Shown here in pieces: positions 9,393-28,509 of a DNA stretch of 64,000 nucleotides. How positions within the stretch are numbered: the first letter of the stretch is position 1; the number at the start of each line of letters is the position of its first letter. The notes under the pieces were generated by a model. It saw nothing but the letters and a program-made list of their open reading frames with translations. It made no database searches and had not been told where the DNA came from. The translations under genes were made by a program, and so were the position numbers. This DNA comes from Edaphobacter sp. (GTDB lineage Bacteria; Acidobacteriota; Terriglobia; Terriglobales; Acidobacteriaceae): NCBI GenBank assembly GCA_035492215.1, contig DATJJJ010000057.1:324-64323 (forward strand), read 5' to 3'.

Positions 9393-10259
9393 ATGGACTG
9401 GACTCCTGGCGGGCTTAGCAGGGATGTAGAGGATCGGCGAGGATCCTCAGGCGGCGGTTTTGGCGGCGGCGGAATCGGGATCATCGGTCTCCTTTTTCTT
9501 CTGGTGATCAGCCTTGTTACGGGGCGCAACTATATCGGCAGCTATCTGTCCGGCGGCGGTCATGTCGCTACGACGAACACTCGTCCCGCTACCTCTTCGG
9601 CGGCGGAGGATCGTTCCGCGCAGCTGGTTTCCTTCACGCTGGACGATGTGCAGCAGACGTGGGAGAAGCTGCTGCCGGAGCAGGCTCGTCAGGATTATCG
9701 TCACGCGAGGCTGGTTCTGTTTCGCGACTATACGAGGTCGGGCTGCGGTGCGGCGCAGTCGCAGACCGGTCCGTTCTACTGCCCGGCGGACGAGAAGGTG
9801 TATATGGACCTGAGCTTCTGGGATGAGCTGCGGCGCCTCGGTGGGGGCACGGCGGAGTTCGCGCAGGCTTATGTTGTAGCGCACGAGCTCGGCCATCATG
9901 TCCAGAACATCCTGGGGATCGACCAGCAGATGCGGCAGCTTCAGCAGCAGAACCCGAGGGCGCGAAATCAGCTGTCCGTGATGCTGGAGCTGCAGGCGGA
10001 TTGCCTGGCCGGAGTGTGGGGACACTCGGCGGCGCAGCGTGGAATCATCCATCAGGACGACGTTGACGCCGGCCTGCGTGCGGCAGCAGCGGTGGGCGAC
10101 GATCACATCCAGAAGATGTCGCGGGGCGCTGTGTCTCCGGAGAGCTTTACGCATGGAACTTCAGAGCAGCGTCAGAGCTGGTTCATGAAAGGACTCCAGT
10201 CCGGGGATATCCGTTCCTGCAATACTTTTCAGAGTCAGTCCAACGGCGGCAGCTTCTGA
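9393..10259 (+). CDS. Neutral zinc metallopeptidase (YpfJ-like)
   Basis: VEDRRG, GPFYCPAD, AHELGHHVQ (HExxH), ELQADCLAG, FTHGT motifs. Confidence 0.92.
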   Translation: MDWTPGGLSRDVEDRRGSSGGGFGGGGIGIIGLLFLLVISLVTGRNYIGSYLSGGGHVATTNTRPATSSAAEDRSAQLVSFTLDDVQQTWEKLLPEQARQDYRHARLVLFRDYTRSGCGAAQSQTGPFYCPADEKVYMDLSFWDELRRLGGGTAEFAQAYVVAHELGHHVQNILGIDQQMRQLQQQNPRARNQLSVMLELQADCLAGVWGHSAAQRGIIHQDDVDAGLRAAAAVGDDHIQKMSRGAVSPESFTHGTSEQRQSWFMKGLQSGDIRSCNTFQSQSNGGSF

Positions 10260-10265
10260 CGTAGA

Positions 10266-10516
10266 GGGATTACCCCCCTCCGTACTTATTGATGCAAAGT
10301 ATTCATCGGAAGAGACTTAGATTGGTACTTCGGTCGCGGATCCCGATGAAAGAGGAAGTCTGCGGAAGGGGCTTTGCTGCAAGGCATACTCCTGCGGCTT
10401 GAAGCTGTCTTTGTAAGTCCCTGTTTTTATTTTAATTGCGGAACTAAAACTGATCGGCAGTGTTAAGTGGCTGATAGGGAAGCCTTTGTGGCGGGAAGGA
10501 GCTTGACAGGAATTTG
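10266..10516. repeat. Dispersed intergenic element, copy 1
   Basis: Shares TACCCCC-N4-GTACTT, TGCAAA-N18-TTAG and CTGATCGGCA-N43-TTGACAGGA with 32135-32343. Central stem AGGGGCTT/AAGTCCCT followed by a T-rich tract. Confidence 0.75.
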
Positions 10517-10597
10517 CTCTCCTCATGTTGCTTCCCTCAAGGCCCTGAAGGAATTGCCTTTGGGAGCCAACTCGTGTCGGGTTAGGATGAACACTGC

Positions 10598-11608
10598 ATG
10601 CGACGGCCACTGGTTTTGCTTCTAGTCCTTTGCTTTTGCGGATTTGTAAAAGCGCAGAGTTCCATTGAGCGGGTTTACGTCTTCGGAGACAGCTACTCGG
10701 ATATCGGCCGGGGTTGGGTGGATACGAACGGACCCACGGCGGTCGCTTACATGGCGCAGGATATGGGGCTAGCCATGGTGCCTTCCAATACGCCGGATGC
10801 AGAGGAGAAGAGCCTGAACTTTGCGGTGAGCGGAGCGCCTACCGGCGAAAATCCAGGGCATCGCATTCTGAAAGCATGCTTTGGACTCGGCATGAAGAAC
10901 CAGGTGAAGAACTTTACTGCAAGTGTGCAAGACGGCACACTCTCGTTCGATCCTCAATCGACGGTCTTCTTTCTTGCGGGTGGATTGAATGACAGCAAGA
11001 TTCCGACGGAGGAGACGATTGCGAATCTTGAAGGAGAGATCCAGATGCTGTACGCGGCAGGTGCACGACGTTTCCGCGTGGCCGTACTTCCGGAGAAGAT
11101 TCCTGGATTCAGCGAGGTGGCCCAGAGGCTGAATCCAGCGATTCGGAATATTCCCGCGGCGATGGAGCCGAAACTGAACGGTGCGGGAGTCAAGCTGAGC
11201 CAGTGGGGCGCGTTCTTCGACGAGGTGATGACGAACCCCGGTAAGTATGGGATTACCGATACAACGCATGCATGTTCGGGACGCTCGATCTTTGGAGAGG
11301 ATGCAACGCCGTGCGATTCGCCTGCGACTCATTACTACTTCTATAAAGACCATCCTTCGACGGCGGTTCATAAGGCTGTGGGAGAGATGCTGTATGCGGA
11401 GCTGACGGGGAAGAAACCAGCGTCTGCCATGGCAACGGTCAAGCTAGCGGCTCCATCTGCCGCTGCGGCGAATAAGCCTGCGGCTTCAACGGGCGGAGTA
11501 ACCAAACCGAGTGTGTCTCCGACGAGTGCTGCGGTCAAGCCAACGGCTTCTTCCACGAGTGCTGTGCCAGCGACTGTTACAGATGGAAAAGTAAAGACCG
11601 TGCGCTAA
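10598..11608 (+). CDS. Secreted SGNH/GDSL hydrolase with Ala/Ser/Thr/Pro-rich C-terminal tail
   Basis: Signal peptide, FGDSYSD (block I), NFAVSGA, GGLND, DxHPS (KDHPS). Confidence 0.9.
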   Translation: MRRPLVLLLVLCFCGFVKAQSSIERVYVFGDSYSDIGRGWVDTNGPTAVAYMAQDMGLAMVPSNTPDAEEKSLNFAVSGAPTGENPGHRILKACFGLGMKNQVKNFTASVQDGTLSFDPQSTVFFLAGGLNDSKIPTEETIANLEGEIQMLYAAGARRFRVAVLPEKIPGFSEVAQRLNPAIRNIPAAMEPKLNGAGVKLSQWGAFFDEVMTNPGKYGITDTTHACSGRSIFGEDATPCDSPATHYYFYKDHPSTAVHKAVGEMLYAELTGKKPASAMATVKLAAPSAAAANKPAASTGGVTKPSVSPTSAAVKPTASSTSAVPATVTDGKVKTVR

Positions 11609-11819
11609 AAGACGAGCTCAGCTCCTTCGGACTCGATTGGGAATTCATGGTCCTCGCCATCAAGGACTATGATGATCGGCATGAATGAAGAGCAGTTCAG
11701 GATCGATGCAAGTGCTCCTGGCAATGAGGATAGGACGTATGCCTCATGTAATTGTCTGGTATTCGCGATATAAAGCTGCCTCATTCTGAAAACGACCCAG
11801 AATAGCCACAAGGAGCTTT

Positions 11820-13400
11820 ATGGAAAGTAAATTTCTAGTCCGCGCCTGTACCGGACTTTCTCTTGCAGCGTGCACGCTTGTGCCTCATCTGGTTGCGCAA
11901 AGCCCGCGTTCTGCCGCGGCTGCTCCTGCGACACCTTCAGCGAATGCCCCGATGGAGGAGAAGCCGTACGATCTGCTGTTGAAGGGCGGCCATGTTATCG
12001 ATACAAAGAACAACCTCGATGCGATACGAGATGTCGCCATCAAGGATGGCAAGATCGCCAAGGTTGCCGTGGGAATTCCTGCAAGCTCCGCGATCAAGAC
12101 GGTGAATGTTGCGGGCCTTTATGTGACGCCGGGCCTGATCGATATTCACGTTCATGTGTTCTGGGGCCTGACGAAGGATGACTATGCCGGCGGCGATTGG
12201 GCGATTATGCCGGACGGATTTACGCTCAGGGACGGCGTGACCACGGTGGTCGATGCAGGCTCTTCGGGGTGGCGCAACTTCGAGACCTTCAAAGAGCGTG
12301 TGATCGATCGTTCGCAGACGCGTGTTCTGGCTGAGTTGAACATCGTGGGCGCGGGCATGGGCAGCGGCCCGATTGAGCAGAACATGAAGGATATGGACGG
12401 CGAGAAGACCGGTGAGATGGCTCTGAAGTATCCGGGCATCATCGTCGGGGTGAAGAGTGCTCACTTCACCGGGCCAGAGTGGTTCCCATACGATCAGGCG
12501 ATCAAGGCGGGAACGATCGCGCATATTCCTGTGATGATCGACTACGGTTCGCGCCGGGTTGAACGTCCGTTGTATCAGCTGCTGGAGAACAAGCTTCGAC
12601 CGGGCGACATTTATACGCACATGTACGGCGGCAACCGCGGCGAGCAGGACGAGGCGACGGGCGGACCGGGCAAGGGGATGTGGGAAGGACGCAAGCGCGG
12701 CATCTACTTCGATGTGGGCCATGGGCAGAGCAGCTTCCTGTTCAGCGTGGCTGTACCGCTGATCAAGGCGGGTTTCATTCCCGACTCGATCTCGACGGAC
12801 ATTCATACGGATAACCTGAATGAAGGTCTGAAGGATCAGCTGACGACGGCGGACAAGTTTCTCGCGATGGGACTGCCGCTGAAGGAAGTGATCGCGGAGA
12901 TGACGTGGCACCCGGCGGTGGAGATGCAGCAGACCCAGCTGGGGCAGCTTACGGAGGGCGCGATTGCCGATGTGGCGGTGCTGAACGTTCATCATGGCGA
13001 CTATGGCTTTATCGATGGATCCGGAGCCGTGATGAAGGGCCACGAGAGGCTGGAGTGCGAGCTTACGATCAAAGACGGCAAGTTCGTCTACGATCTGAAT
13101 GGCCGCGCGGCCCCGGCTTGGGATGAGCCTTTGAGCGAGGCTACGAAGGAAGGGAAGAAGTGGACCTCGCTTCGGATCCCGGGACCTCCGAGACGTCCTG
13201 CGAATGCACAGCAGGCGGCGCGCATGTCGCGGTTCCCGCCGCGTTGGGTGCCGTATGAGGTCGACGCCGACGGCAAGGCAACGTTGAAGCCGAACGCAAA
13301 GCTGCCGCCCGCGGGGGCGAAGACGGCGAAGCCAGAGGCTCCGCCTGCCTCGACATGGAAGACGCCTCCGGCGGATTCGTGGCCTCCGGCACAGAAGTAG
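11820..13400 (+). CDS. Amidohydrolase/deacetylase-family metallohydrolase (dihydroorotase-like) with signal peptide
   Basis: PGLIDIHVH, GVTTVVDAGSSG, RPGDIYTH, FDVGHG, ISTDIH motifs. Confidence 0.9.
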   Translation: MESKFLVRACTGLSLAACTLVPHLVAQSPRSAAAAPATPSANAPMEEKPYDLLLKGGHVIDTKNNLDAIRDVAIKDGKIAKVAVGIPASSAIKTVNVAGLYVTPGLIDIHVHVFWGLTKDDYAGGDWAIMPDGFTLRDGVTTVVDAGSSGWRNFETFKERVIDRSQTRVLAELNIVGAGMGSGPIEQNMKDMDGEKTGEMALKYPGIIVGVKSAHFTGPEWFPYDQAIKAGTIAHIPVMIDYGSRRVERPLYQLLENKLRPGDIYTHMYGGNRGEQDEATGGPGKGMWEGRKRGIYFDVGHGQSSFLFSVAVPLIKAGFIPDSISTDIHTDNLNEGLKDQLTTADKFLAMGLPLKEVIAEMTWHPAVEMQQTQLGQLTEGAIADVAVLNVHHGDYGFIDGSGAVMKGHERLECELTIKDGKFVYDLNGRAAPAWDEPLSEATKEGKKWTSLRIPGPPRRPANAQQAARMSRFPPRWVPYEVDADGKATLKPNAKLPPAGAKTAKPEAPPASTWKTPPADSWPPAQK

Positions 13401-13418
13401 AAGGCTGAGATGAAAGAG

Positions 13419-13452
13419 AAAATCGCGCTCCGATACGGGGCGCGATTTTTTT
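13419..13452. terminator. Bidirectional intrinsic terminator
   Basis: AAAATCGCGCTCCG-ATA-CGGGGCGCGATTTT followed by further T's, between convergent amidohydrolase and uvrC. Confidence 0.85.
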
Positions 13453-13469
13453 GTGAATTCCGATAAGTG

Positions 13470-15467
13470 TCAGTTGAGGACGGACAGGTTTGTTTTTGCA
13501 GGTAGGGCTTCGGTAGCGAAGTGCTGGCGGATGCGGTCGGCGGTGGCCTTGTTGACGACGGCGGTGAGGGCGTCGGGATTCTTTTCGGCGGTTTGACGGA
13601 TGGCGCGGATGGAGCCGAAGTGTTCGAGCAGGCGTTGGCGGGTGCGGGGGCCTACGCCGGGAATCTCGAGGAGTTCGGAGCTGCGGTCGCGCATCTCGCG
13701 GCGCTTGCGATGGTAGGTAATGGCGAAGCGGTGAGATTCGTCGCGGATCTTCTGGACGAGATGAAGCACGGGTGAGCGGCGGTCGAGGACGATGGGGTCG
13801 TTCTCCTGCCCGTAGACGTAGATGATCTCTTCGCGTTTGGCGATGGATGCGAGCGGCTGCAGGGTGACGCCGATCTCGTTGAGGGCATCGGCGGCGGCGT
13901 GAAGCTGGCCGAGGCCGCCGTCGATGAGGATGAGGGAGGGGAACTCTTTCTTGTCGGCGAGAAGGCGGGAGTAGCGGCGCTGGACGATCTCGCGCATGGA
14001 GGCGAAGTCATCGACGCCGGTGACGGTCTTGACCTGGAACTTGCGGTAGTCGGATTTCTTCATGGCACCGTCTTCCCAGACGACCATGGAGGCGACAGTT
14101 TCAGCACCCTGGATGTGGGAGATGTCGAAGCACTCGATGCGGCGCGGAATCTCTTCGAGCATGAGGGCGTCCTGCAGGGCCTGGGCGATGGCTTTTTGAG
14201 AGGGGATGAGGACGCGGAAACGCTGGTCGTAGGACTGCTTAGCGTTCTGGCCGACGAGGTCGACGAGAGAGCGTTTTTCGCCGCGTTGGGGAACGAGGAT
14301 CTCGACGCGGTGGCCGGAGCGCTCGGAGAGAAGCTCGGCGAGCGGGGCGCGGTCGGGGAAGTCGATGGGGACGAGGATGGAGCGGGGAACGTATCCCTGG
14401 TCGAGATAGAGCTGGCTGAGCAGCGAGGAGAAGAAGGCTGCGGGGGAGAAGGCAGTCGCCGGTTGCTGGTTGCCGGTTGCCAGTTCGGGATCGGTGAGGG
14501 GGGAGTGCTCCTCGGCGGAAGGGGAGTCGTCGTGGATCTCGGGAGCGGAGTAGTTGGGGTTCGGTTCGAGCGTGGGGTCGTCTTCGCTTTCGAAGGCAGT
14601 AAGGTCGGGGAGGTCTTCCCAGAAGAAGTCGCGCCGATCGACGATCTTGCCGGAGCGCATGTGGAAGAGATTCACCGCGAGCATCTCGTTCTCGTAATGG
14701 AAGCCGAAGACGTCAGCGTCTTCGTTGTCGGTGGTCGCGATGCGCTGCTTGTCGAGCATCTGGTGGACGGTGGTGAGCTGGTCGCGGAGACGTGCGGCGA
14801 GCTCGTACCGCTCGGCCTCTGCGGCCTGCTGCATGCGCTCCGTGAGGCGCTCGACGAGTTCTCCGGGGCGGCCTTCGAGGAAGAGCTGTACGTCGCGGAC
14901 GGCCTGGCGGTAGTCCTCGGGTGTGGTGAAGCCTTCGACGCAGGGGCCGAGACAACGCTTGATGTAGTACTGCAGGCAGGCGCGCGGGTGATAGCGGGAG
15001 AGGTCGACCTTGCAGGACGGAATGAGGAAGCTGCGGTGGATGAGGTCAACGAGGCGGTGCGCCAGGTTGCCGGGAAAGTAGGGACCGAAGTAGGCTGAGC
15101 CGTCTTTGCGCAGGCGACGAGTGACGAAGACCTTGGGATAGCGGTCGCTCATAGTGAGCTTGATGTAGGGGTAGGTCTTGTCGTCGCGAAGGAGGATGTT
15201 GAAGCGCGGCTTGCGCTGCTTGATGAGGTTGTTTTCAAGTGCGAGGGCTTCGTGCTCGTTGGCGACGGTGATGTAGTCGACGTCGACGGCCTCGCGCATG
15301 AGGGTGCCGGTTTTGGCGTTGGCCTGCGAGGCGGCGAGGAAGTAGGAGCGGACTCGTGCGCGGAGATTCTTGGCCTTGCCGACGTAGATAACCTCGCCCT
15401 CGGCGTTTTTGTAGAGATAACAGCCGGGAGAGGTGGGAAGGGTCCGGATTTTGTCGTAGAGGTCCAT
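13470..15467 (-). CDS. uvrC: Excinuclease ABC subunit C, with an internal acidic insertion
   Basis: GIY-YIG N-terminus (PGCYLY..IYVGKAKNL), UVR domain, RIECFDISH, IDGGLGQ, RDESHRFA, HhH motifs. Confidence 0.98.
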   Translation of the reverse strand: MDLYDKIRTLPTSPGCYLYKNAEGEVIYVGKAKNLRARVRSYFLAASQANAKTGTLMREAVDVDYITVANEHEALALENNLIKQRKPRFNILLRDDKTYPYIKLTMSDRYPKVFVTRRLRKDGSAYFGPYFPGNLAHRLVDLIHRSFLIPSCKVDLSRYHPRACLQYYIKRCLGPCVEGFTTPEDYRQAVRDVQLFLEGRPGELVERLTERMQQAAEAERYELAARLRDQLTTVHQMLDKQRIATTDNEDADVFGFHYENEMLAVNLFHMRSGKIVDRRDFFWEDLPDLTAFESEDDPTLEPNPNYSAPEIHDDSPSAEEHSPLTDPELATGNQQPATAFSPAAFFSSLLSQLYLDQGYVPRSILVPIDFPDRAPLAELLSERSGHRVEILVPQRGEKRSLVDLVGQNAKQSYDQRFRVLIPSQKAIAQALQDALMLEEIPRRIECFDISHIQGAETVASMVVWEDGAMKKSDYRKFQVKTVTGVDDFASMREIVQRRYSRLLADKKEFPSLILIDGGLGQLHAAADALNEIGVTLQPLASIAKREEIIYVYGQENDPIVLDRRSPVLHLVQKIRDESHRFAITYHRKRREMRDRSSELLEIPGVGPRTRQRLLEHFGSIRAIRQTAEKNPDALTAVVNKATADRIRQHFATEALPAKTNLSVLN
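14453..14485. repeat. Heptanucleotide tandem repeat inside the uvrC insertion
   Basis: CAGTCGC CGGTTGC TGGTTGC CGGTTGC CAGTT (~4.7 units). Confidence 0.65.
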
Positions 15468-15672
15468 TGCGGATGGAACAGCGCCTGCAAGTGCTGATGG
15501 GTAGAGACTTAACTTCCTAGTGTAGACCTGATCGCAGGAAAAGGTTGCTTGAGTAGATTTGACGCAGATTCACAACAAAAGTTCCAGATGAGAAGAGGCT
15601 TGCAAATGTGAAGCGTTCTTCATGGCTTCGTGTAAGTGTATGAAAAATATTGGTTTATTTTTTGTTTTGTTT

Positions 15673-15688
15673 TGGCATGGCGATTGCA
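15673..15688 (+). promoter_or_regulatory. Sigma54 (-24/-12) promoter
   Basis: TGGCATG-GCGA-TTGCA with GG-N10-GC spacing exact; AT-rich, weakly IHF-like tract at 15633-15670 upstream; rpoN present in window. Confidence 0.75.
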
Positions 15689-15740
15689 TTTGCTATGAGT
15701 GAATTGATGCAGCATGTCTGCAACGAAGGAGATGACACTC

Positions 15741-16487
15741 ATGGGCTCCACGACACGTACCTTTCTTGGCAAAGAGATGAAAGTCGGTTCTGCCGGAACA
15801 CTTGTACTTACCAGTGCGCTGTTGCTTACGTTTACGGTGGGATGTTCGAGCAAGAACTATGTGCGGTCGCAGACGCAACCGCTGATTGACCAGACCAACA
15901 AGCTGGATGCAAAGACGGCCAGCGACCACCGCACCATTGTAGACACGGATGAGCGCGCTCAGGCGGGCATCAACAAGGCGCAGACCTCGGCGGATACAGC
16001 AGACCAGCATGCTCAGGCTGCAGGCCAGGCTGCGAATACGGCGGGACAGTCGGCTACGGAGGCTTATAACCGTGTGCAGACTCTCCAGGGTGTCGTGGCG
16101 AATCTGGATAACTACAAAGAAGTCTCGAACGTGAATGTCACCTTCAAGTTCGACAAGTCGGTTTTGACCGCCGACGATCGGAAGCAGCTGGATGACTTTG
16201 CTGCGTCTCTCGCGGACAAGCGGAGCTACATTCTGGCAGTGACGGGCGGTACGGATACGACCGGAGATGCGAACTACAACTACTCGCTCAGCCAGCGCAG
16301 AGCAGATGCGGTTGTGAATTATCTTTCGACGAAATACAACATTCCACCCCATAAGTTCTATCTGATAGGTATCGGTGAGGATCAGCAGGTAGCGTCGGAT
16401 AACACCGCTGCCGGCCGAGCCAAGAATCGCCGGGTTGAGGTGAAGCTGATGACGAACATGGATCAGCAGGCCTCAGCGAGCCGATAG
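15741..16487 (+). CDS. OmpA-family lipoprotein with Ala-rich coiled-coil
   Basis: SD AAGGAGA before ATG 15741; lipobox TVGC; FKFDKS, GGTD, LSQRRA, NRRVEV OmpA_C motifs. Confidence 0.92.
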   Translation: MGSTTRTFLGKEMKVGSAGTLVLTSALLLTFTVGCSSKNYVRSQTQPLIDQTNKLDAKTASDHRTIVDTDERAQAGINKAQTSADTADQHAQAAGQAANTAGQSATEAYNRVQTLQGVVANLDNYKEVSNVNVTFKFDKSVLTADDRKQLDDFAASLADKRSYILAVTGGTDTTGDANYNYSLSQRRADAVVNYLSTKYNIPPHKFYLIGIGEDQQVASDNTAAGRAKNRRVEVKLMTNMDQQASASR

Positions 16488-16526
16488 GGTTTCCCGCAAC
16501 ACCAATCTGCACGACCCACACACCGC

Positions 16527-16623
16527 AAGATGCCGGGGACGATATGCTGCGGACCCGGTATCTTCAATCCTCTCCCAGCGGCGGCAGGGCAGCATTAAGA
16601 AAGACCCTGCCAGCCACCCTCCT
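16527..16623 (+). ncRNA. Candidate structured RNA: two hairpins with a kissing-loop pseudoknot
   Basis: 11-bp stem 16527-37/16554-64 capped by tandem GA pairs; second stem 16580-89/16605-15; loop ATGCTG (16544-49) complementary to CAGCAT (16590-95). Confidence 0.55.
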
Positions 16624-16660
16624 ATCTTCTAAAAGTTCTTTTTGAGCATCCGGGTGAGAA

Positions 16661-16882
16661 TTACTGGCCTGGATCTTTAAGGGCGCGATAGACCACCCAG
16701 AGCAGGCCGGATGTAAGTACGACCCAGAGGAACTGATACCAGTAAAAGAAAGGGAAACCCAAGAGCGTCGGTGTTTCGCGCACGTAGATCTGCGGAAAGC
16801 AGAGCGCGAGGTACGGAGCGGCGAGAAGAATCCAGAGCGCAGGTTTTTTTCGCAGGGATGTCTTGCCGGTCTTGTCGCTCAT
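16661..16882 (-). CDS. Small membrane protein (DUF3311)
   Basis: P.LLGFPFFYWYQFLWV signature; two TM segments. Confidence 0.85.
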   Translation of the reverse strand: MSDKTGKTSLRKKPALWILLAAPYLALCFPQIYVRETPTLLGFPFFYWYQFLWVVLTSGLLWVVYRALKDPGQ

Positions 16883-16948
16883 GGTGTTCTGATGAGGATG
16901 CTACCACGCCAGATGCAGGCGCAGAGCCGCTTCGGGTAAAGTGGAGCT

Positions 16949-17776
16949 ATGGAAACATCGCAGAGTGAAGAGACTGCCCGGAGCCTTCTGGAGGCGGTGG
17001 AGATCATGGCTCGGCTTCGTGGGCCCGATGGATGTCCATGGGACCGGGAGCAGACCTTCGATACGATCAAGCGGTATACGCTCGAAGAGACCTATGAGGT
17101 CTTCGATGCGATTGAGCGGCGAGCCTGGCCAGACCTGAAGGATGAGCTTGGCGACCTGCTGCTGCAGGTTCTTTTCTACTCCCAGATGGCGGCTGAGGCC
17201 GGTTACTTCACCATCAATGATGTTGCGGCGAATCTGAATGCGAAGCTGATTCGGCGGCACCCGCATGTGTTTGGGGAGCGGGAAGCGGCGGATTCAGCAG
17301 CGGTGCTGCGCAACTGGGAAGAGATCAAGAGGGAAGAGAAGCAGGCTGCGGGTGTGAAGGCGGAGACTTCTCTGTTGAGTGAGGTTCCTCGCTCGATGCC
17401 GGCGCTGATGGAGGCGGGGAAGCTGGGCTCGCGCGCGGCGAAGGTGGGATTCGACTGGCCCGATGCAGAGGGGCTGTTTGCGAAGCTTGAGGAGGAGGCC
17501 GAAGAGATTCGTGCCGAGCTAAAGGATGAGAGGGATGCCGCCGCGGTCGAGGAAGAGGTTGGCGATCTGTTGTTTACAGTGGTGAATCTGGCGCGTCACC
17601 TGAAGGTAGACCCTGAGGCGGCGTTGCGGGGTGCGAATGCGAAGTTTCGCCGAAGGTTTGGCGCGATGGAAGAAGAGGCCGGCGGCCGTGAGGGACTTTC
17701 AGATTTAGGGCCCGAAGAATTGGACGCTTTGTGGCGACGAGCGAAGAGCAGCACGACTGAGATTGAAAAGACATAG
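16949..17776 (+). CDS. mazG: Nucleoside triphosphate pyrophosphohydrolase MazG
   Basis: GCPWDREQT, EETYEV, DELGDLLLQ, RRHPHVF, GFDW, EEEVGDLLF motifs. Confidence 0.96.
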   Translation: METSQSEETARSLLEAVEIMARLRGPDGCPWDREQTFDTIKRYTLEETYEVFDAIERRAWPDLKDELGDLLLQVLFYSQMAAEAGYFTINDVAANLNAKLIRRHPHVFGEREAADSAAVLRNWEEIKREEKQAAGVKAETSLLSEVPRSMPALMEAGKLGSRAAKVGFDWPDAEGLFAKLEEEAEEIRAELKDERDAAAVEEEVGDLLFTVVNLARHLKVDPEAALRGANAKFRRRFGAMEEEAGGREGLSDLGPEELDALWRRAKSSTTEIEKT

Positions 17777-17800
17777 TGAGGCAGAACGACAGGTTGAACA

Positions 17801-18577
17801 ATGAGTGAGAGAGATGAGGGCAGTATCGAAATCAGGCCTCTAACCACGCTGGAGCATTTTGACCGGTGCGTGGATCTGCAGGTGGAGGTGTGGGGGTACA
17901 GCGACGGCGACCTGATCCCCCGGCGCGTATTTCTGGTGGCGGAGAGAATTGGCGGGCAGGTGCTGGGAGCTTTCGATGGCGAGACCATGATCGGTTTTGC
18001 GATGGGGTTACCGGGATATCGCAAGGGGCACTCTTATCTGCACTCCCATATGCTGGCGGTGCTTCCGGGATATCGAAATGCAGGGCTGGGGCGCAGGCTG
18101 AAGCTGGCCCAACGCGAGGATGCGCTTGCCCGCGGATTCGATCTGATGGAATGGACGTTCGACCCGCTTGAGATCAAAAACGCCTATCTGAACATTGCCC
18201 GTCTGGGAGCTATCTCACGACGTTACAAAGCGGACTTTTATGGTCCGTCCTCTTCGCCCTTGCAGGGCGGATTGCCGACAGATAGGCTATACGCGGAATG
18301 GTGGTTGAGATCTCCCAGGGTTACGAAGATTCTGGGAGGAGAGGCCCCGGAAGTTAGGGTCGTAGAATATGTAACCGTACCGCACACCATTTATGAGTGG
18401 AAACAGGACCCCCAGAAACGATCGTTGGCGCAGCAGGTGCAGGCAGCGAATCGTGAAGCTCTGCAATCGGCTTTTGAACGCGGTTTGAGCGTTGTGGGTT
18501 ACGAACGTGATCCAGAGGGAAATGGAAGATTTCTGCTTGGTTCATGGAAGGATGAGGAGCAGGGAGCCTGGAGTTAA
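17801..18577 (+). CDS. GNAT acyltransferase (putative D-amino acid N-succinyltransferase)
   Basis: LHSHMLAV, GLGRRLKLAQR, WTFDPL..NA.LN, TDRL motifs; adjacent to OSBS/NSAR gene. Confidence 0.85.
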   Translation: MSERDEGSIEIRPLTTLEHFDRCVDLQVEVWGYSDGDLIPRRVFLVAERIGGQVLGAFDGETMIGFAMGLPGYRKGHSYLHSHMLAVLPGYRNAGLGRRLKLAQREDALARGFDLMEWTFDPLEIKNAYLNIARLGAISRRYKADFYGPSSSPLQGGLPTDRLYAEWWLRSPRVTKILGGEAPEVRVVEYVTVPHTIYEWKQDPQKRSLAQQVQAANREALQSAFERGLSVVGYERDPEGNGRFLLGSWKDEEQGAWS

Positions 18578-18635
18578 GAAAAAAATCAGGCCATACGCAT
18601 TCTCTAAAAGCAGACTGGAAGGACGGGACAGAACG

Positions 18636-19766
18636 ATGCTGAACATCAATGCAATTCATATGCGTGAGATCAATATGCCTTTGGCTCATCCTTTTGAGAC
18701 GAGCTTTGGGCTGACGACGGGACGGCGCATCCTTCTGATCGAGTTGGAAGCCGACGGGCTGACGGCATGGGGCGAGTGTGTCGCGGGAGAGCATCCTTAC
18801 TTTAGTGACGAGATGATCGATACAGCATGGATCATCACGGAGAATGAGCTTATTCCGAAGTTGCTGGACGCGGAACTGGAGCGCGGTGGAGATGTTCCGG
18901 ATGTCTTGAAGCAGGTTCGAGGCCACCGGATGGCCAAAGCGGCGCTTGAAAACGCTGTGTGGGATCTGGAGGCGCAGACGAGAGGAGTGTCTCTGGCCGA
19001 CTTGCTGGGTGGGACGCGGGAGATCATTCCGTGCGGCGTCTCCATCGGGATTCAGCCCACGCTGGAGAAGCTGCTGGAGAAGATTGAGACGGAGCTCGCA
19101 GCTGGATATCAACGCATCAAGCTGAAGTGCAAGCCGGGATGGGATCAGCATATCTTTGAGGCCGTTCGTAAGCGGTGGCCGGAGATTCTGTTGAGCTGCG
19201 ATGCCAACTCTGCTTATCGCATGAAAGATTTCGACCACATTGCGGAGTGGGATGAGTTCAACCTGCTGATGATTGAGCAGCCGCTTTGGTACGACGATTT
19301 TTATTTCCATTCCATGCTGCAGAAGAGGATTGAAACTCCGATCTGTCTGGATGAGTCGATTCGTAACCGTCGTGATGCGCTGGCGGCGATCGATATGGAG
19401 TCGTGCCAGATTATCAATATCAAGGTGGGAAGGGTCGGCGGTTTCAGCGAGGCGATCGCCGTGCACAACGCTGCCGAGGAGCGCGGAATTCCTGTGTGGT
19501 GCGGAGGCATGCTCGAGACGGGGATTGGCCGGGTACACAATATTGCGTTGTCGTCACTGCCGAACTTCTCGCTGCCGGGAGACGTCTCAGCGTCGGCGCG
19601 TTACTGGGCACAGGACATCATCGAGCCTGAGGTTACGGTAAGCCCGACGGGGGAGATTGTGGTTCCGACGGGTGTGGGGTCGGGATATGCCGTACTGCGC
19701 GACCGGATTGAGGATCTGACGGTTCGCAGGCAGACGCTGCGCGCAAAGGCCAGGGTTACAGCCTAA
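18636..19766 (+). CDS. menC: o-Succinylbenzoate synthase / N-succinylamino acid racemase (enolase superfamily)
   Basis: PFETSFG, RIKLK, DANSAY, IEQPL, LDES, NIKVGRVGG, WCGGMLE, PGDVSAS motifs of the NSAR/OSBS subfamily. Confidence 0.9.
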   Translation: MLNINAIHMREINMPLAHPFETSFGLTTGRRILLIELEADGLTAWGECVAGEHPYFSDEMIDTAWIITENELIPKLLDAELERGGDVPDVLKQVRGHRMAKAALENAVWDLEAQTRGVSLADLLGGTREIIPCGVSIGIQPTLEKLLEKIETELAAGYQRIKLKCKPGWDQHIFEAVRKRWPEILLSCDANSAYRMKDFDHIAEWDEFNLLMIEQPLWYDDFYFHSMLQKRIETPICLDESIRNRRDALAAIDMESCQIINIKVGRVGGFSEAIAVHNAAEERGIPVWCGGMLETGIGRVHNIALSSLPNFSLPGDVSASARYWAQDIIEPEVTVSPTGEIVVPTGVGSGYAVLRDRIEDLTVRRQTLRAKARVTA

Positions 19767-19780
19767 GCGCTTGACTGCTA

Positions 19781-20656
19781 TCAATGCGTGGGAAGCGGTG
19801 TGTTCAGGAGCATGCGAATTGCGTCCTGATAGCTCATCGAGGGAATGGGCCGAAAGTCCCATGCGTCGATATCGGCCTTGATATTGAGGGTCTTGACCAT
19901 GAGAGCGCGCACGGAGATGCGCTGCTCGAAGTGTGTGAAGATCCATCGGCCATTACCGGCGTCCTGCTGTTCGATGGATAGCGTGCCGCCGGGATAGATA
20001 TGGGCCAGCATACCCCAGCCGAAGTTTACGCTGCGAAAGATATTGCCTTCCATACGAATGATCTGCTTTGACCTGGAGTCAATCCAGGCGCGGCCACGAA
20101 GGCCGGTGAGAGCCTCGGCAGTCGTGGAGGGTGGATGGAATTTGGGGTTGGGCTCATAGTCGATGACGATCTCGGTCTGGCCGGGGTGTTTGCCTGTCTG
20201 AGGCTGCCCGGGCGTATAGGTGTAGATCATGGCGTCGGGCATAAGGCGAATCAGCTGATCGGCGATTTTTTTGCCCGACTGGGTGTCTTTGATGTGACGC
20301 GCGAATCCGTCGGGATTTTTGAGCATATCGTTGAGACGCTGCTGTTCATCCTTGTCCTGCTCTTCTGTCAGAGGCTTGCCGTCGCGCAGAACAAGGCGGG
20401 CGACTGTGCCGTCGCGGCTTTCAATCACATCGCGAACCTGGTCTCCCTTGGCGTTGACGATGCGCATGCGGTAGCGGAGAGGGGCGTTTCTGTTGTTCAG
20501 AACGGCGAGTTCGTGGGAGACGGTTTGAACGACCCATTCTCGGGGAGGAATGGAGAGCAGAGGGTCCGGACCGGAAGAGGTTTGAGCATGGGTAAACGGC
20601 AGAAGAAAGAAGAAGCATAGCAAGAAGCAGCCTGCCGCCCGAAGAGATCTTTCCAT
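19781..20656 (-). CDS. Hypothetical exported beta-rich protein
   Basis: Signal peptide ...FTHAQ; GRAWID..QIIRMEG pattern like LolA/MucB-type beta folds; start uncertain (20656 or 20716). Confidence 0.7.
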   Translation of the reverse strand: MERSLRAAGCFLLCFFFLLPFTHAQTSSGPDPLLSIPPREWVVQTVSHELAVLNNRNAPLRYRMRIVNAKGDQVRDVIESRDGTVARLVLRDGKPLTEEQDKDEQQRLNDMLKNPDGFARHIKDTQSGKKIADQLIRLMPDAMIYTYTPGQPQTGKHPGQTEIVIDYEPNPKFHPPSTTAEALTGLRGRAWIDSRSKQIIRMEGNIFRSVNFGWGMLAHIYPGGTLSIEQQDAGNGRWIFTHFEQRISVRALMVKTLNIKADIDAWDFRPIPSMSYQDAIRMLLNTPLPTH

Positions 20657-20894
20657 GCGGCCGAGCGGCGAGCTTCGTGAAATGGACTGTCTGTATTGTC
20701 GGTTGCGTTCTCTCACTCGTTTCGCTCGACCTGATCGTATGCTTTGCTTCGACGAAGCACCTGTGTTGACTATCTTACGTATGACGTAGGCGGATACGGC
20801 AAAGTTTTCCCTGGGTTTGCCTCATAAGGAAGCGTTGGGTATAGTTCGGGCAAGGCAAAGAAAAGCTGAGAACCTTGAGGAGAATCAAAAGGGA

Positions 20895-21299
20895 ATGAAG
20901 CCAGCAGAAGGATCCACCGTTATCGGCAAGTCCGTGACTATTCACGGAGAGCTTTCGGGCAATGAAGACCTCTACCTCGATGGCGATATGGAAGGAACGA
21001 TTACCCTGCGCGATCATGGGCTGACTATTGGTCCGAATGCAAGGATTATGGCCGAGATTCACGCGAAGGATGTGACTGTGTTCGGCAATGTCACCGGAAA
21101 CCTGCACGCAAGCGGCAAGGTAGACCTTCGTCATTCCGCGGTTGTCCTAGGAGATATCTTCAGCAGCCGGCTCTCAGTGGAAGAGAATGCCACGATCAAG
21201 GGCAAGGTTCATCTGGGCAGTGCAGAGGCGACACAAGGTTCTCCGGCTGAGGCGGGAAAGACCGAGCAGACAACTCTGGTTCTTGAGCCGAAAGTTTAA
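20895..21299 (+). CDS. Bactofilin (polymer-forming cytoskeletal protein)
   Basis: TVIGKSVTIHGEL..EDLYLDG..EGTI, VFGNVTGN, VEENATIKG beta-helix repeats. Confidence 0.93.
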   Translation: MKPAEGSTVIGKSVTIHGELSGNEDLYLDGDMEGTITLRDHGLTIGPNARIMAEIHAKDVTVFGNVTGNLHASGKVDLRHSAVVLGDIFSSRLSVEENATIKGKVHLGSAEATQGSPAEAGKTEQTTLVLEPKV

Positions 21300-21319
21300 G
21301 AGGAAGGGAATCGGAGCGA

Positions 21320-21961
21320 ATGCGCAATCTCTTCGGTGGCGGCAGCGAGGGGTCGAGTGCGTCGCGTGGATCGGACGCGACCCGGATTCCGCGGCACTCG
21401 AGCGGATGGAAGGAGCTGCAGAAGCATCTGAAAGGCCAGGATTCGTTGCGGGTGCTGGATATCGGCCCGACCTCCTCGATGAACATCAATTACATTACAA
21501 GCCTCGGCCATAGCATCTATATGGCGAACCTGGTCGAAGAGGCGTCGAAGCCGGAGTGGGTTCTTCCTGGAGAAGGGGATGAAGGACCGAAGTATGATCT
21601 TGCACGTTTCTTCGAAACGAATCTTAACTTCTCAGGCCGTAACTTCGATGTCGTGATTTTGTGGGATACGGTCGACTTTCTACCGGAGCCTTTGGTGGAG
21701 CCGGTACTGGCGCGATTGCATGAGGTGATGAGTTCCGGTGGTCTAATGCTGGCGTTCTTTCATACGTCTCACGATCCGAGCACGGCGTTCTGCCGTTATC
21801 ACCTGACCGATACGGAAGTGGTAGAGATGCAGAGAGCTGGGAGTTATCCGATGTTGAATAGCTACAGCAACCGAAAGATTGAAAACCTACTTCGCGAGTT
21901 TGGTAACTATCGTTTCTTTTTGGCGAAGGATAGTCTTCGCGAAGTGATCGCCACGAAATAA
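21320..21961 (+). CDS. Class I SAM-dependent methyltransferase-like protein
   Basis: RVLDIGP (motif I), FDVVILWD, GGLMLAF. Confidence 0.75.
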   Translation: MRNLFGGGSEGSSASRGSDATRIPRHSSGWKELQKHLKGQDSLRVLDIGPTSSMNINYITSLGHSIYMANLVEEASKPEWVLPGEGDEGPKYDLARFFETNLNFSGRNFDVVILWDTVDFLPEPLVEPVLARLHEVMSSGGLMLAFFHTSHDPSTAFCRYHLTDTEVVEMQRAGSYPMLNSYSNRKIENLLREFGNYRFFLAKDSLREVIATK

Positions 21962-21973
21962 CCAGAAAGAACA

Positions 21974-22000
21974 ATGGCGCAATCGATAAGATTGCGCCAT
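21974..22000. terminator. Hairpin between convergent genes (probable terminator)
   Basis: Perfect 11-bp stem ATGGCGCAATC-GATAA-GATTGCGCCAT. Confidence 0.65.
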
Positions 22001-22023
22001 CGCTTTGTCTCGTAAAGATCGGC

Positions 22024-22293
22024 TTATTTTGCCTGTTTGCTGGCCGCCTTGCTTCCAACCTGCTTGCGCCGATCGGCCCAGCGCTTCTTCATCGCCTCAG
22101 CAATTCGCTTCCGACCTTCGGGTGTGAGCTTGCGCTTGCGCTTTCCTGCGGACGCGGTGACACCATTGGTGCTCCCCTTCGGGCGTCCACGACCACTACG
22201 CGCCGGCTGTGCGGCATCGGCGAGCAGCGCGCGCGCTTGTTGCAGCTTTTGAATTTGTGCGTCGATCTCGGCGATGATTTGAGTAACTTCCAC
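22024..22293 (-). CDS. Small basic DNA-binding protein (coiled-coil + AT-hook + basic helix)
   Basis: SD AGGAGA before GTG; IIAEIDAQIQKLQQARALL, GRGRPKG, LTPEGRKRIAEAMKKRWA. Confidence 0.85.
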   Translation of the reverse strand: MEVTQIIAEIDAQIQKLQQARALLADAAQPARSGRGRPKGSTNGVTASAGKRKRKLTPEGRKRIAEAMKKRWADRRKQVGSKAASKQAK

Positions 22294-22328
22294 GAATATC
22301 TCCTGAAAAAGTCGGAGTTAATGATCAC

Positions 22329-22403
22329 TAAGTTCTATTGACTTACCCATTAATAGATTCAGGATCACAAAACTTATAAGTTACGATACAGAACTTATAA
22401 GTC
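22329..22403. promoter_or_regulatory. Tandem palindromic operator-like array
   Basis: ACTTATAAGT at 22372-81 and 22393-402 (21-bp period), plus TAAGT-N7-ACTTA at 22329-45. Confidence 0.55.
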
Positions 22404-22434
22404 TGCCGCAAACAAAGTTTGGTCAATCTTCGTC

Positions 22435-24801
22435 TTATTTTCGAGTAGTTTCTGCTTCCTGTTTCTCGGAAGTGCCCTCGGAATGCGGCCGTATGGCGTA
22501 GCCTGGACCCGATGAATCTTCAAGATAACGATTGCCAAGTCCGTGGCGTTTATTGGTTCGTTTTATATATTGCTGAAGGCCATGCAAGGTCGCTTCGCGG
22601 TCGCGTGCAAACTCCGAAGCCATATGAGTTAGTGCATAAGTCACGATGTCGCTGTGATGAAGCTCGCGCATGCCGGGATTTCTTCGCAGGTTGAGCCACA
22701 GGCGATGGACTAGTTGAACATCCTCAGGAGCAATGGTTGGAGCGTGCGGACCAATGTGGAAGTCAAGTGCTTCGCCATTGGGCTTGACGACATAAAAAGT
22801 AAATTGCCGCTTGGGCTCAGCGAGTGCCTCCCACGCCTGGCCAACGTGATACGCCTGTTCTTCCGCGGTAAGTTTGCTGGAGAGACCGGAGATGACGGCT
22901 GCAGCATCGAGAGAGTTTGCGGTCTGCACCAGTGCGGCAAAGATGTCTCCTGCGGGAACGACGAGCAATGAGATGTGCTTGCCAAAGCTTTCAGCGACGG
23001 ACACAGCCTTGGTAAAGAGCATCTGCTCGTGCTCACTGAAGAGTTGTTCGGAGGCCTCCACATATTCGGGGCCTCCGACCCCCATCATGCGAGCGGCGAG
23101 GACCACGATGTCCTGCTCTTCGGTGTTGGTATGGGTGAGAGCCCACTTGAGCGCGAAGGGCGCGGCGGCATCGCGCATGGTGACGATGACGGCGCCGGGG
23201 CGGATATCGAGTGCAGTGCAACCTACCGTGTCCTGATGCTCCAGCTGGAAGTGTTCACGCATCTGCCGAGTGGCGAGATCATGGCGGCGTTTGTTGTCGC
23301 GTTCGGAGAGAGAAAAGATGACAAAGAAGGCCGCAGCGAAGATGACTCCGCTGACGGTTGCGACGGATTTGGTGAACAGATTGACGATCGCAGTCGTGAA
23401 GAGTACCAGAAAGACGGAGATCAGTCCGATAGGAATCTCTGTCTTGCCGATGCGGAGGTTGAGAGGAACCTTCCAGCCACGTTCGCCATGGTACTTCCAG
23501 CGCAGAACCAGCATGGCGAGGGCGTTGAAGGTGAAGCTCCAGATCACTCCAAAGGCGTATGCTTCGCCGATCACGACGACGTTGCCGTGAGTAATTGCGA
23601 TGACAAAGAGCTGAAGCGCGGCGACGAGATTAACGATGCGATAGCTGGTGCCGTACTTCTTCTGCGGCTTGCGGAACCAGTCGGTGAGTACGCCGTCTTC
23701 AGCGATGCGCATGAGCACACCGGTTGAACCGACGATCGCGGTATTGACGGCTCCGCCCAGAATGAAGAAGCCGACCACGACTACGAAGCAACGGAAGATT
23801 ATGCGCAGGATCTCCGGGCCGACCATGTACATGGCCATACCGGCGATGAGGTTGTCGCGGTAAACATGCACGCGAACGCTGTCGGGAATGATCATGACAG
23901 CCAGCAGGGAGCAGAGGCCGGTAAAGAAGAAGCTGTAGGTCGCGATGACGAGCGCGGCGCGCTTAAGGTTCTTGAGCTTGGGATGCTCGATTTCTCGATT
24001 GACCTGGGCCAGCGATTCTTCTCCGCTCATCGCGAGCACGGAGTGGCCGAAGGCCATGAGCACACCAAACAAGCCAAGCGTTGTGGCGAACTTTGTCCCT
24101 TTGAGGAAGCCCAACGCATCCGAACTGAAATGAAGATTGGAGGGGATGGGGAGTGGAGGAAGCTGGGCTCCGCGATGAACGACAGTGTAGGTGCCCCAAA
24201 GCAAAAGAATCACCACCATGACGGTGGTGATCTTCATAATATCGAGTGCTCTCTGGCTGGATTCTTCGATTCCTTTGATGTTCTGCCACCAGAAATAAAA
24301 GGTGATCAGAGCAGCGATGACAGCAGAGGCAATGTCGGGTCTGAGGTGTGGCGTTGCGGACCAGTGAAACCGTAGCGCGGCGAAGTGGGCCAGATCGTTG
24401 AATAAACCGACGATGTACTGGCCGGCGGAGACACCGGAGATGGGGCCGGTCAGCACATAGTCGAACATGAGGGCGGAGACGCTGACCTTGGCAAAGGTAC
24501 TGCCGAGGGCTTCCTTGACGATGCGATAGACCCCACCGCGGGTAAACATCGAGCAGCTCTCGACATAGACCGAGCGCACGGCATAGGCAAAAAAGACGAC
24601 CGACAGGATGAGCCAGGGGGCCGATTTTCCGACCGCTTCTTCCGCGAGTCCGCCTGCGTAGAAGGCGGACGATCCTAAATCGTTGAGAACAATGGCTGCC
24701 GCTCGCCAAAAAGAAATAAAGGTGAGCATGACCGAAGACGCCACGACGAGGCGTACTCGGTTGGATTGCGGCAGAACGACAGTATTTTTTGCTGAAGCCA
24801 T
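22435..24801 (-). CDS. APC-family permease with cytoplasmic C-terminal domain (KimA/YdaO-like)
   Basis: DLGSSAFY, GGVYRIVKE, MFDYVLTGPIS, AMSGEES motifs; ~12 TM segments then a soluble domain. Start 24801 or 24831. Confidence 0.88.
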   Translation of the reverse strand: MASAKNTVVLPQSNRVRLVVASSVMLTFISFWRAAAIVLNDLGSSAFYAGGLAEEAVGKSAPWLILSVVFFAYAVRSVYVESCSMFTRGGVYRIVKEALGSTFAKVSVSALMFDYVLTGPISGVSAGQYIVGLFNDLAHFAALRFHWSATPHLRPDIASAVIAALITFYFWWQNIKGIEESSQRALDIMKITTVMVVILLLWGTYTVVHRGAQLPPLPIPSNLHFSSDALGFLKGTKFATTLGLFGVLMAFGHSVLAMSGEESLAQVNREIEHPKLKNLKRAALVIATYSFFFTGLCSLLAVMIIPDSVRVHVYRDNLIAGMAMYMVGPEILRIIFRCFVVVVGFFILGGAVNTAIVGSTGVLMRIAEDGVLTDWFRKPQKKYGTSYRIVNLVAALQLFVIAITHGNVVVIGEAYAFGVIWSFTFNALAMLVLRWKYHGERGWKVPLNLRIGKTEIPIGLISVFLVLFTTAIVNLFTKSVATVSGVIFAAAFFVIFSLSERDNKRRHDLATRQMREHFQLEHQDTVGCTALDIRPGAVIVTMRDAAAPFALKWALTHTNTEEQDIVVLAARMMGVGGPEYVEASEQLFSEHEQMLFTKAVSVAESFGKHISLLVVPAGDIFAALVQTANSLDAAAVISGLSSKLTAEEQAYHVGQAWEALAEPKRQFTFYVVKPNGEALDFHIGPHAPTIAPEDVQLVHRLWLNLRRNPGMRELHHSDIVTYALTHMASEFARDREATLHGLQQYIKRTNKRHGLGNRYLEDSSGPGYAIRPHSEGTSEKQEAETTRK

Positions 24802-24915
24802 TGATTGTGAGAACGCGTCGTAACCTGTCACTGCGTCCAGAAAACTATCGTCCGTAGGGTAGTTTAAGGTGCGCTCCGGTCAGCGTCAATGGTAAGACCA
24901 GGAATCTGACAAAAA

Positions 24916-25077
24916 CTAAAGCTCGCCGTCGCGCGTTTCATCACTGGTAAAGATTTCCCCGAGATCGCGCAAAACCGTGATCAGGACGACCAGCATCGAA
25001 CCTGCCACTCCTATAAAGAAGAGCGGGACCAGGATGGAGCTGACTGTGCTCATGAACGCGTCCATGTTCAGTTTCAT
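24916..25077 (-). CDS. Small single-TM protein (53 aa), not in ORF track
   Basis: Manual translation MKLNMDAFMSTVSSILVPLFFIGVAGSMLVVLITVLRDLGEIFTSDETRDGEL; TM helix plus acidic tail; alternative starts 25065 and 25053. Confidence 0.65.
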   Translation of the reverse strand: MKLNMDAFMSTVSSILVPLFFIGVAGSMLVVLITVLRDLGEIFTSDETRDGEL

Positions 25078-25100
25078 TGTAAATGGTAGACTCAAGCGCG

Positions 25101-26741: not shown

Positions 26742-26745
26742 AAAG

Positions 26746-28495: not shown

Positions 28496-28509
28496 TGGAG
28501 GCGAGGACG

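Follow-up and report, generated by a model that had tools for sequence, protein, structure and literature searches.

The window, that is, the whole 64,000-nucleotide stretch of DNA analysed here, lies on contig C57 of the source genome (G000, a 2.36-Mb assembly that is 56% complete) and carries two copies of an intergenic repeat. The names of homologues suggest an Edaphobacter-like member of the Acidobacteriaceae. Both sites (10260-13469 and 32135-32965) are convergent gaps, the first between a peptidase gene and uvrC and the second between a redoxin gene and rarA; these gaps are short in many relatives, but they repeatedly gather different genes and repeats. From left to right, the element consists of a C-run, a T-rich spacer, a quasi-palindromic core that is sometimes repeated, a variable centre, a pyrimidine tract, a -10-like hexamer, a CGGC motif and TTGAC. 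The parts of both copies, and the domains of G over C that follow them, are placed in the window as follows.

10271..10281, + strand: copy 1, left boundary, TA and C-run (motif positions and alignment)
10293..10328, + strand: copy 1, left core, quasi-palindromic and IHF-consensus-like, GCAAAGTATTC-N11-TTAG-N4-GTAC (left-end profile)
10329..10417, + strand: copy 1, variable centre with weak hairpins
10418..10509, + strand: copy 1, right part, pyrimidine tract and internal IHF-like unit (right-end profile)
10429-10434, - strand: copy 1, -10-like hexamer TAAAAT
10450-10459, + strand: copy 1, CTGATCGGCA
10503-10508, + strand: copy 1, terminal TTGACA
32138..32148, + strand: copy 2, left boundary, TA and C-run, 3 nt past the redoxin stop codon
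32161..32196, + strand: copy 2, left core, exact IHF-consensus match at 32163-32175
32211..32250, + strand: copy 2, central terminator-like hairpin (-29.3 kcal/mol as RNA for 32205-32256)
32246..32337, + strand: copy 2, right part (right-end profile)
32257-32262, - strand: copy 2, -10-like hexamer TATCGT
32278-32287, + strand: copy 2, CTGATCGGCA
32331-32336, + strand: copy 2, TTGACA
9393..31469, + strand: G-over-C domain after copy 1 (fourfold skew per gene)
31523..64000, + strand: G-over-C domain after copy 2 (fourfold skew per gene)

A preliminary description of this DNA had given 12 motif positions, all of them exact, and an exact match to the IHF consensus at 32163, which is indeed present. 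It had also seen a bipartite element in two copies. The element is real and bipartite, but its copies are far more numerous: an iterated DNA profile of the left end matched 65 left ends at E<1e-4 in the 2.36 Mb of G000, and a right-end profile gave 55 matches. Fifty-two of the latter are paired with a same-strand left end at a distance of 151-406 nt, and three further ones, 925-1039 nt from a left end, belong to three long copies. The reversed genome, used as a control, gave no match with either profile, and the conserved spacing is therefore not due to chance. The exact 10-mer and 9-mer reported from both copies are present, but they are just a shared version of degenerate family motifs. The repeat is a dispersed, oriented DNA family of 200-300 bases with conserved spacing. 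Median identity between copies in G000 is 0.60 at the left end and 0.52 at the right end (maximum 0.86 and 0.69), and by this measure they are old and diverged. Unrelated cargo genes lie inside the three long copies; judged by sequence features, they encode a YdeI-like protein in one, a PEP-CTERM-like protein in another, and a PadR-like protein and a membrane protein in the last. Just beyond the window end, a third copy is found on the same contig (C57:64895).

The hexamer reads TAnnnT on the opposite strand and is located exactly 20 nt from the CGGC motif in 44/52 copies. TTGAC occurs in 51/52 and lies 47-49 nt further on in 41 of the 43 measured, and TA is found at one end in 16/48 copies. 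The variable central hairpin of the preliminary description exists in some copies, but a perfect one of at least 7 bp was found in only 18/52. Elsewhere, the centre contains extra left-core units, other repeats or whole cargo genes. Exact matches to the IHF consensus YAANNNNTTGATW, in the form given by that description, number 20 in 52 elements compared with 0.4 in shuffles, and the left core itself is exact to it in 8/65 copies only; each genome checked has two to three genes of the HU/IHF family. The proposed DNA architecture with conserved spacing was borne out, with protein binding itself as a prediction, and the left core of copy 1 is likely an oriented protein-binding signal.

With respect to distribution, a strict left-core pattern was positive in 7/301 genomes of the phylum, all from the family of the window's organism, and a looser one in 57/71 genomes of the genus, with 0-115 matches per genome and at most one in reversed controls. 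(The tallies of pattern matches in the genus, and those of the portal gene in the family and of the zinc-finger gene given below, take in genomes G009, G330 and G350, which are marked as unpublished; no conclusion depends solely on these three.) A check of orthologous loci, which the preliminary description had recommended, did reveal empty sites: the profile matched at 0/29 peptidase loci of relatives (window site 1) and at 2/47 redoxin loci (window site 2), one of these matches being inverted and the other weak. The relative G446 has 44 pattern matches elsewhere, yet its peptidase-SGNH pair is separated by an 80-nt gap without element. Gain and loss of the element are therefore independent of the accessory gene, and the position ahead of such a gene, which had been considered a shared trait, is incidental. 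Copies are concentrated in convergent gaps (27/62 versus 60/664). The closeness to a stop codon noted for both window copies recurs in the family, with the C-run directly after a stop codon in 32/65 copies. Around 36% of the G000 assembly is within -2 to +20 kb of a copy.

Spread of the unit without a gene of its own is supported by presence and absence at orthologous sites, by the range of 0-115 pattern matches per genus genome and by the cargo inside three copies. To that extent the earlier idea of a non-autonomous mobile unit finds support. A MITE of the Correia/ERIC/RUP type shares the multicopy state with filled and empty sites. It was rejected because terminal inverted repeats are missing (a C-run forms the left end, and TTGACA followed by unconserved sequence the right) and no target-site duplication was found, the longest word shared by the flanks being no longer than in mismatched pairs (4.48 versus 4.56, n=48), although old copies could have lost a duplication. 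A transposase-driven element (IS200/IS605, IS91 or other) was discarded as well, since the linked gene has no HUH or DDE domain and the cargo of the three long copies is unrelated; an unlinked transposase acting in trans is possible. The structured RNA family listed among the earlier options did not survive either: the window has no Rfam gathering-level match, one match of E=0.29 was seen in four loci, and the RNAalifold consensus is empty for both ends on both strands. An outward sigma-70 promoter from TTGACA would have its -10 at 16-18 nt in 1/51 copies only. As for expression, the three RNA runs consulted contain almost nothing of the window. Finally, an origin from a phage cos site was rejected, the two pattern matches in viral contigs both being without the flanking anatomy and judged to be chance.

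Several described repeats resemble the element in part. Correia/NEMIS MITEs with IHF sites and Caulobacter CIR repeats are also intergenic, multicopy, non-coding, of 100-300 bp, provided with an IHF-like motif and comparable in the TA at one end (PMC2229807, in part), whereas the element has asymmetric ends, a cognate non-transposase gene, long oriented skew domains and no consensus RNA fold. Neisseria REP2 and Borrelia IR-A/IR-B are repeats carrying a promoter, a hairpin, a ribosome-binding site and a start codon upstream of a gene (PMC3184786, in part); in contrast, the G-run of most element copies leads to no gene, these copies lie against stop codons, a single gene family is linked to the element, and the strand effect is long-range.

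This linked gene was detected in other genomes, where identical core matches in G012 and G287 are parts of 1-kb units with ragged ends, 95-99% identical between loci. Each unit is composed of the element and an open reading frame that starts just past the C-run on the opposite strand, and near-identical gene-bearing units are found at two loci in G287 and also in G012. It had been stated that no cognate enzyme is encoded in the window; the cognate zinc-finger gene, which lies outside it, had been missed. Its product has an N-terminal Cys-x9-Cys-x10-Cys-x2-His motif (Cys3-His), a helical hairpin (predicted pLDDT >90) and a variable tail that can extend into neighbouring genes. There are more than 1000 close homologues, with 3554 representatives at E<=0.001, and no match in Pfam, PHROG, NCBIfam, PDB or BFVD was obtained by profile, sequence or fold searches. 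The best results of the fold searches (Z 5.5 to a generic helical hairpin; BFVD E=1.4e-3 to an unnamed protein) exclude no family. Among the viral contigs, phages and plasmids searched there are no relatives of the gene. A fused catalytic domain was seen in 0 of 45 longer homologues, the longer forms having unrelated host-enzyme domains or none.

Both G000 copies of the zinc-finger gene adjoin an element, and an element is located beside the gene in 26/30 fetched loci of the genus, which makes the element its leader. The repeat is the leader of a multicopy, unannotated zinc-finger/helical-hairpin gene in soil Acidobacteria. The gene occurs in 28/29 genomes with at least 10 element matches, with rho 0.43 over 71 genus genomes that are related and hence non-independent. 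In G000, 63/65 copies are gene-less. In gene-bearing copies, the zinc-finger start codon comes directly after the G-run of the - strand, which is placed like a ribosome-binding site; no zinc-finger gene lies behind the G-run of copy 1 (10271..10281). Family-wide, and as judged by eye, the gene is preceded by two to three tandem left-core units with a period of about 30 nt and IHF-like halves, and diverged subfamilies in the genus and family have variant leaders of the same plan. The gene is C-rich at fourfold sites in 29/30 family loci, in other genera, even where the flanks are unskewed. The sole G-rich gene of the 30 (L257, G374:C210) has an inverted left-type repeat array pointing into it and represents a single natural inversion test, one case assessed by eye.

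The main result concerns the base composition of the DNA around the element. The left-to-right strand is the G-rich strand around 59/65 copies, and gene-by-gene maps of fourfold skew show domains that start at elements and fade in the element direction. In the window, skew is 0.17-0.23 in four genes before copy 1 (3739-9244) and 0.36 in the last gene before it; after the copy, gene skews are 0.53, 0.41 and 0.70 and then mostly 0.3-0.56. After copy 2 they are mostly 0.5-0.77 over 33-52 kb and go down to 0.2-0.49 by 53-63 kb, with the exception of the SRPBCC-like gene at 32419 (-0.16). At the beginning of the window (789-3655), the skew of the first four genes drops from 0.60 to 0.26, which would fit a further copy situated just left of the contig start. 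Over all G000 copies, orientation-corrected fourfold skew is 0.08-0.16 beyond -3 kb, 0.19-0.49 across the last 3 kb before the element and 0.39-0.56 to +15 kb, followed by 0.33 and 0.24 (20-30 kb), 0.13 to +40 kb and 0.03 at 40-60 kb. The rise begins 1-3 kb ahead of the element and the plateau is about 0.5. For the 46 scorable copies, downstream skew minus upstream skew amounts to 0.375. A null in which intergenic sites were drawn 2000 times and given the orientation of their local skew yields 0.026+-0.040 (maximum 0.19; 0/2000 draws). Of 45 upward skew jumps, 41 are accompanied by an element no more than 8 kb away, compared with a background of 43% (p=2e-11), and of 25 downward jumps, 2 are; at the four element-less upward jumps no diverged element was seen by eye. 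Ordinary transcription bias was rejected as the source, since skew is independent of gene strand and equal for genes on both strands. Scrambling by inversions was also rejected, because it would give opposite skew downstream of some copies and no decay, and 59/65 copies are in the G-rich orientation.

Raw skew computed without gene calls has been found higher downstream than upstream in 27/29 copies of G000, 17/20 of G012, 13/13 of G277 and 4/7 of G287. The 13 copies of G277, which belongs to another genus, pass from -0.18 to +0.5 across the element. In G012, raw skew changes sign many times despite one dnaA, and the orientation relative to the replichore, another check proposed at the outset, gave 53/79 copies (67%) pointing along oriC forks. 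Twenty G012 copies picked to oppose the replichore set by dnaA still have skews of 0.01-0.04 upstream and 0.21-0.45 downstream, with three clear exceptions (L180, L183 and L184); skew therefore follows the element and not oriC. Nine scorable copies, including the three with cargo, have no right end close by, and their skew (0.53) is similar to that of 43 copies with one (0.48), which points to the left part as the signal. In the element-poor genome G152, the standard deviation of skew is 0.29 versus 0.51, the latter from element-centred windows, and its large contig is mostly of one skew sign. In other genera, the flanks of the zinc-finger gene are weakly skewed in six genomes and not skewed in G105. 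Copy density and skew at orthologous loci show no significant relation (rho 0.21, p=0.18). Between converging copies (C46), the skew sign changes gradually. In the dnaA region of the source genome (G000:C49:1-33000), skew is G-rich on both sides of dnaA and does not switch polarity there. The start of an oriented, strand-specific process at the elements is well supported and very probable, while still correlational. A loading site was the closest of the options offered by the preliminary description, which had missed the oriented skew domains of 20-40 kb.

The bias itself is an exchange of G for C. At top-strand fourfold sites within 10 kb, the frequencies are G 0.55, C 0.19, A 0.14 and T 0.13, so that A and T are nearly equal. 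Fourfold GC content decreases with distance from the element, from 0.748 to 0.662 (p=7e-30, G000). In G012, GC is higher downstream of the element (p=1e-7); the gradients in G277 (p=0.12) and G287 (p=0.09) have the same direction and are not significant. Gene orientation is unrelated to that of the domains (49-55% co-oriented within 40 kb). Simple cytosine deamination was rejected because fourfold A and T are equal and GC rises; at twofold sites, however, C-to-T changes are seen on the top strand. The G-for-C exchange with rising GC agrees better with biased fixation in heteroduplex DNA. C/C mismatches escape repair, and G/G mismatches are corrected; this difference, together with a donor strand of fixed polarity, would yield the observed bias pattern. 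Transformation efficiency depends on mismatch type, and the boundaries of integrated tracts decay exponentially, according to part of a pneumococcal study (PMC3375284). A small conversion bias in large populations could override mutational skew.

The reading preferred here, with a probability of roughly 0.4, is that the element acts as an oriented, pac-like signal at which the transfer of single chromosomal strands starts, with mismatch repair as a filter. Pieces of chromosome would be captured in a fixed direction from the element and integrated in other cells as one fixed strand. The zinc-finger protein would bind the left-core repeats as a specificity factor like a small terminase, and gene-less copies would be served in trans. 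Capture would begin on the gene side, not at a fixed point but anywhere from 0 to 3 kb away, pass through the element and extend up to about 40 kb; the vehicle would be a phage-like particle, possibly from the head-tail cluster conserved in the host, and one strand would enter via ComEC/DprA. Unequal mismatch repair of the heteroduplex would then fix G over C on one strand and raise GC. A start upstream of the element would carry both its flanks and thus allow self-spread into empty alleles; arrival at new loci is outside this model. Capture and transfer account for a start that is spread over the DNA upstream, for domains of about 40 kb, for the GC gradient, for the absent gene bias and for the selfish distribution.

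In function, the element would come closest to a pac site paired with its small terminase, or to a run-off origin. Phage pac sites with small terminase, P22 pac-like host sites and lateral transduction would have in common with it that an oriented site sets the one-way capture of downstream host DNA (PMC11260489, in part). According to the same source, packaging of ES18 starts over a 1-kb region, and both this diffuse start and the small DNA-binding/oligomerising gene beside the pac site would have counterparts here. Small terminases are poorly conserved and have a modular plan (PMC6854486, in part) to which that of the zinc-finger protein is similar, with its N-terminal motif, helical hairpin and variable tail. 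Unlike pac systems, the element is present as tens to more than 100 chromosomal modules, with gene-less copies, no relatives in phage collections and no small-terminase match, and packaging is a proposal from sequence. In the literature searched, no report was found of strand-composition domains at pac-like sites.

A candidate vehicle exists in the form of a syntenic, single-copy head-tail (GTA-like) cluster beside purE/purK in 5/5 genus genomes, each with one portal gene.

Head-tail cluster loci: G000:C49:49233-54879; L229 (G012:C1:1398000-1417999); L231; L233-L238

By profile, it contains a head-tail adaptor, a large terminase and a portal. A putative capsid is 86-88% identical, and putative tail genes are assigned by position; no recognisable small terminase is found next to the large terminase in the five genomes. 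The GTAs RcGTA, CcGTA, DsGTA and that of Bartonella are likewise encoded by a conserved single-copy head-tail cluster in a host family, CcGTA also has no known small terminase, and GTA uptake is DprA-dependent (PMC11841831 and PMC6854486, in part). Known GTAs, by contrast, need no sequence signal for packaging, and a single origin with run-off replication causes the Bartonella bias (same sources, in part), whereas many dispersed oriented signals are proposed here, also in genomes without the cluster. Among uptake and repair genes, ComEC occurs in 5/5 genomes, and DprA and MutS in 4/5, being absent only from the 56%-complete G000. Conjugation was rejected as a vehicle, with only weak VirB4 matches, most of them in element-poor G152 and none in G008. 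In the cluster, a HipA-like kinase gene and a second conserved gene are inserted between the large terminase and the portal.

Several observations speak against the transfer reading. Portal was detected in 70/100 genera of the family, some of these being prophage portals, and the zinc-finger gene does not co-occur with it (41/70 portal-positive versus 15/30 portal-negative genomes, p=0.51, with at most 24 candidates scored per genome). Of five portal-negative genomes that bear the gene, none has the large terminase of the cluster, and three still have downstream skews of 0.17-0.29, on 3-12 genes each; G105 has none. The zinc-finger protein has no small-terminase match and no phage relatives. 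A post-portal gene that encodes 715-782 aa in relatives is reduced in G000 (C49:49435-50805) to a 72-residue remnant overlapping the portal end, and the cluster in this genome may be defective. The non-significant GC gradients of G277 and G287, the 4/7 of raw skew in G287 and the non-significant dose-response also count against transfer, as do pneumococcal tracts, which at an average of 2.3 kb are far shorter than the downstream domain (PMC3375284, in part).

An alternative that we consider unlikely, though serious, is that the element is a one-way secondary replication origin, with a plasmid-like initiator gene and iteron-like repeats, domesticated in many copies, from which forks would go left-to-right for 20-40 kb, every cell cycle or as run-off replication. 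For a rightward fork, the leading strand is the G-rich one, so the sign fits. Iteron-type unidirectional plasmid origins have phased direct repeats, IHF-like sites and an adjacent gene, and the tandem left-core units with IHF-like halves before the zinc-finger gene resemble them; here, however, no Rep-like (winged-helix) match came from fold or profile searches, and skew of the same sign sets in 1-3 kb ahead of the element, contrary to the expectation for a fixed origin. The near-identical gene-bearing units of G287 and G012, the gradual sign change between converging copies and the frequent skew flips of G012 with one dnaA and 53/79 copies along oriC forks also agree with an origin. On the other hand, gene co-orientation is lacking, fork direction alone does not give the GC gradient, and the origins would have to fire in the majority of cell cycles to override the replichore bias. 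There is no clear enrichment of DnaA boxes (8 in 38.6 kb versus 24 in 283 kb with a relaxed pattern; 3 versus 55 with one mismatch). Multi-origin skew patterns in bacteria share the many polarity changes per chromosome; in the available part of that report (PMC3269012), skew flips are tied to no defined repeat and Acidobacteria are not mentioned.

It is quite improbable that the element is a Chi-like or nick-directed repair site, which would halt resection from the right or direct a strand-specific nick, an error-prone polymerase then rewriting a short tract on one side and a long one on the other. Such a site does predict the short upstream ramp with the long same-sign downstream tail, as well as co-orientation with replication (67% in G012). 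DnaE2 favours G:C to C:G changes, and a second DnaE copy is present in 4/5 genomes, but two are likewise found in element-poor genomes. A Chi site is a short motif read on a single strand, unlike a 200-300-bp module that has its cognate gene; that gene carries no fused nuclease domain, and patchy gain and loss fit a selfish element better than a core repair signal. Least probable is a passive MITE-like or REP2-like promoter cassette, inserting at the edges of pre-existing skewed segments and oriented by the local strand state: the -10-like TAnnnT, the preference for convergent gaps and stop codons, the 4/45 element-less jumps and the skewed stretches of element-poor G152 agree with it, but it gives no reason for an element-anchored ramp and decay in several genomes. 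Also against it are the scarcity of elements at downward jumps, the zinc-finger gene that is C-rich even within unskewed flanks, with its one G-rich exception at an inverted array, and the missing inverted repeats and target duplications, and G105 suggests that young insertions have unskewed flanks and old ones skewed flanks.

Taking transfer and replication together, it seems more probable than not that selfish zinc-finger modules and their gene-less derivatives parcel Acidobacteriaceae chromosomes into dozens of one-way zones, each with strand-specific exchange over 20-40 kb of core chromosome, as a sequence-directed gene drive that overwrites oriC skew and raises GC over about one-third of the genome. 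The repeat and its skew domains are real and apparently undescribed: the literature searched, from which subscription journals were largely absent, gave no description of the repeat, the zinc-finger gene family, an Acidobacteria GTA or the skew domains, and the available text of a study of prophages in Acidobacteria (PMC5900883) has 'gene transfer agent' once, generically, and no 'GC skew'. A defined repeat that predicts skew resets opens two questions to direct tests: the possible use of many one-way origins by bacteria, and the possible aiming of GTA-like transfer by sequence, with its exploitation by selfish DNA. Since related genomes carry 0-115 pattern matches, they form a natural experiment that connects skew, GC content and recombination, and the hosts belong to one of the most abundant soil lineages. 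Skew-based prediction of origins would mislead in element-rich genomes.

Other repeats and variants accompany the element. A short palindromic REP-like repeat follows the SRPBCC-like gene of the window (32908-32940), and REP-like repeats and a second, GGTGCCCC-type repeat are often located in or beside elements and at the same gaps in relatives. There is also a short right-end subtype, in which GTCAAG comes about 8 nt after the -10-like hexamer, so that TTGAC lies close before TAnnnT on the gene strand.

Short right-end subtype copies in G000: C12:58279 (+), C13:6600 (+), C48:1519 (-), C48:4370 (-), C9:80511 (+)

This short GTCAAG form is common in other genera.
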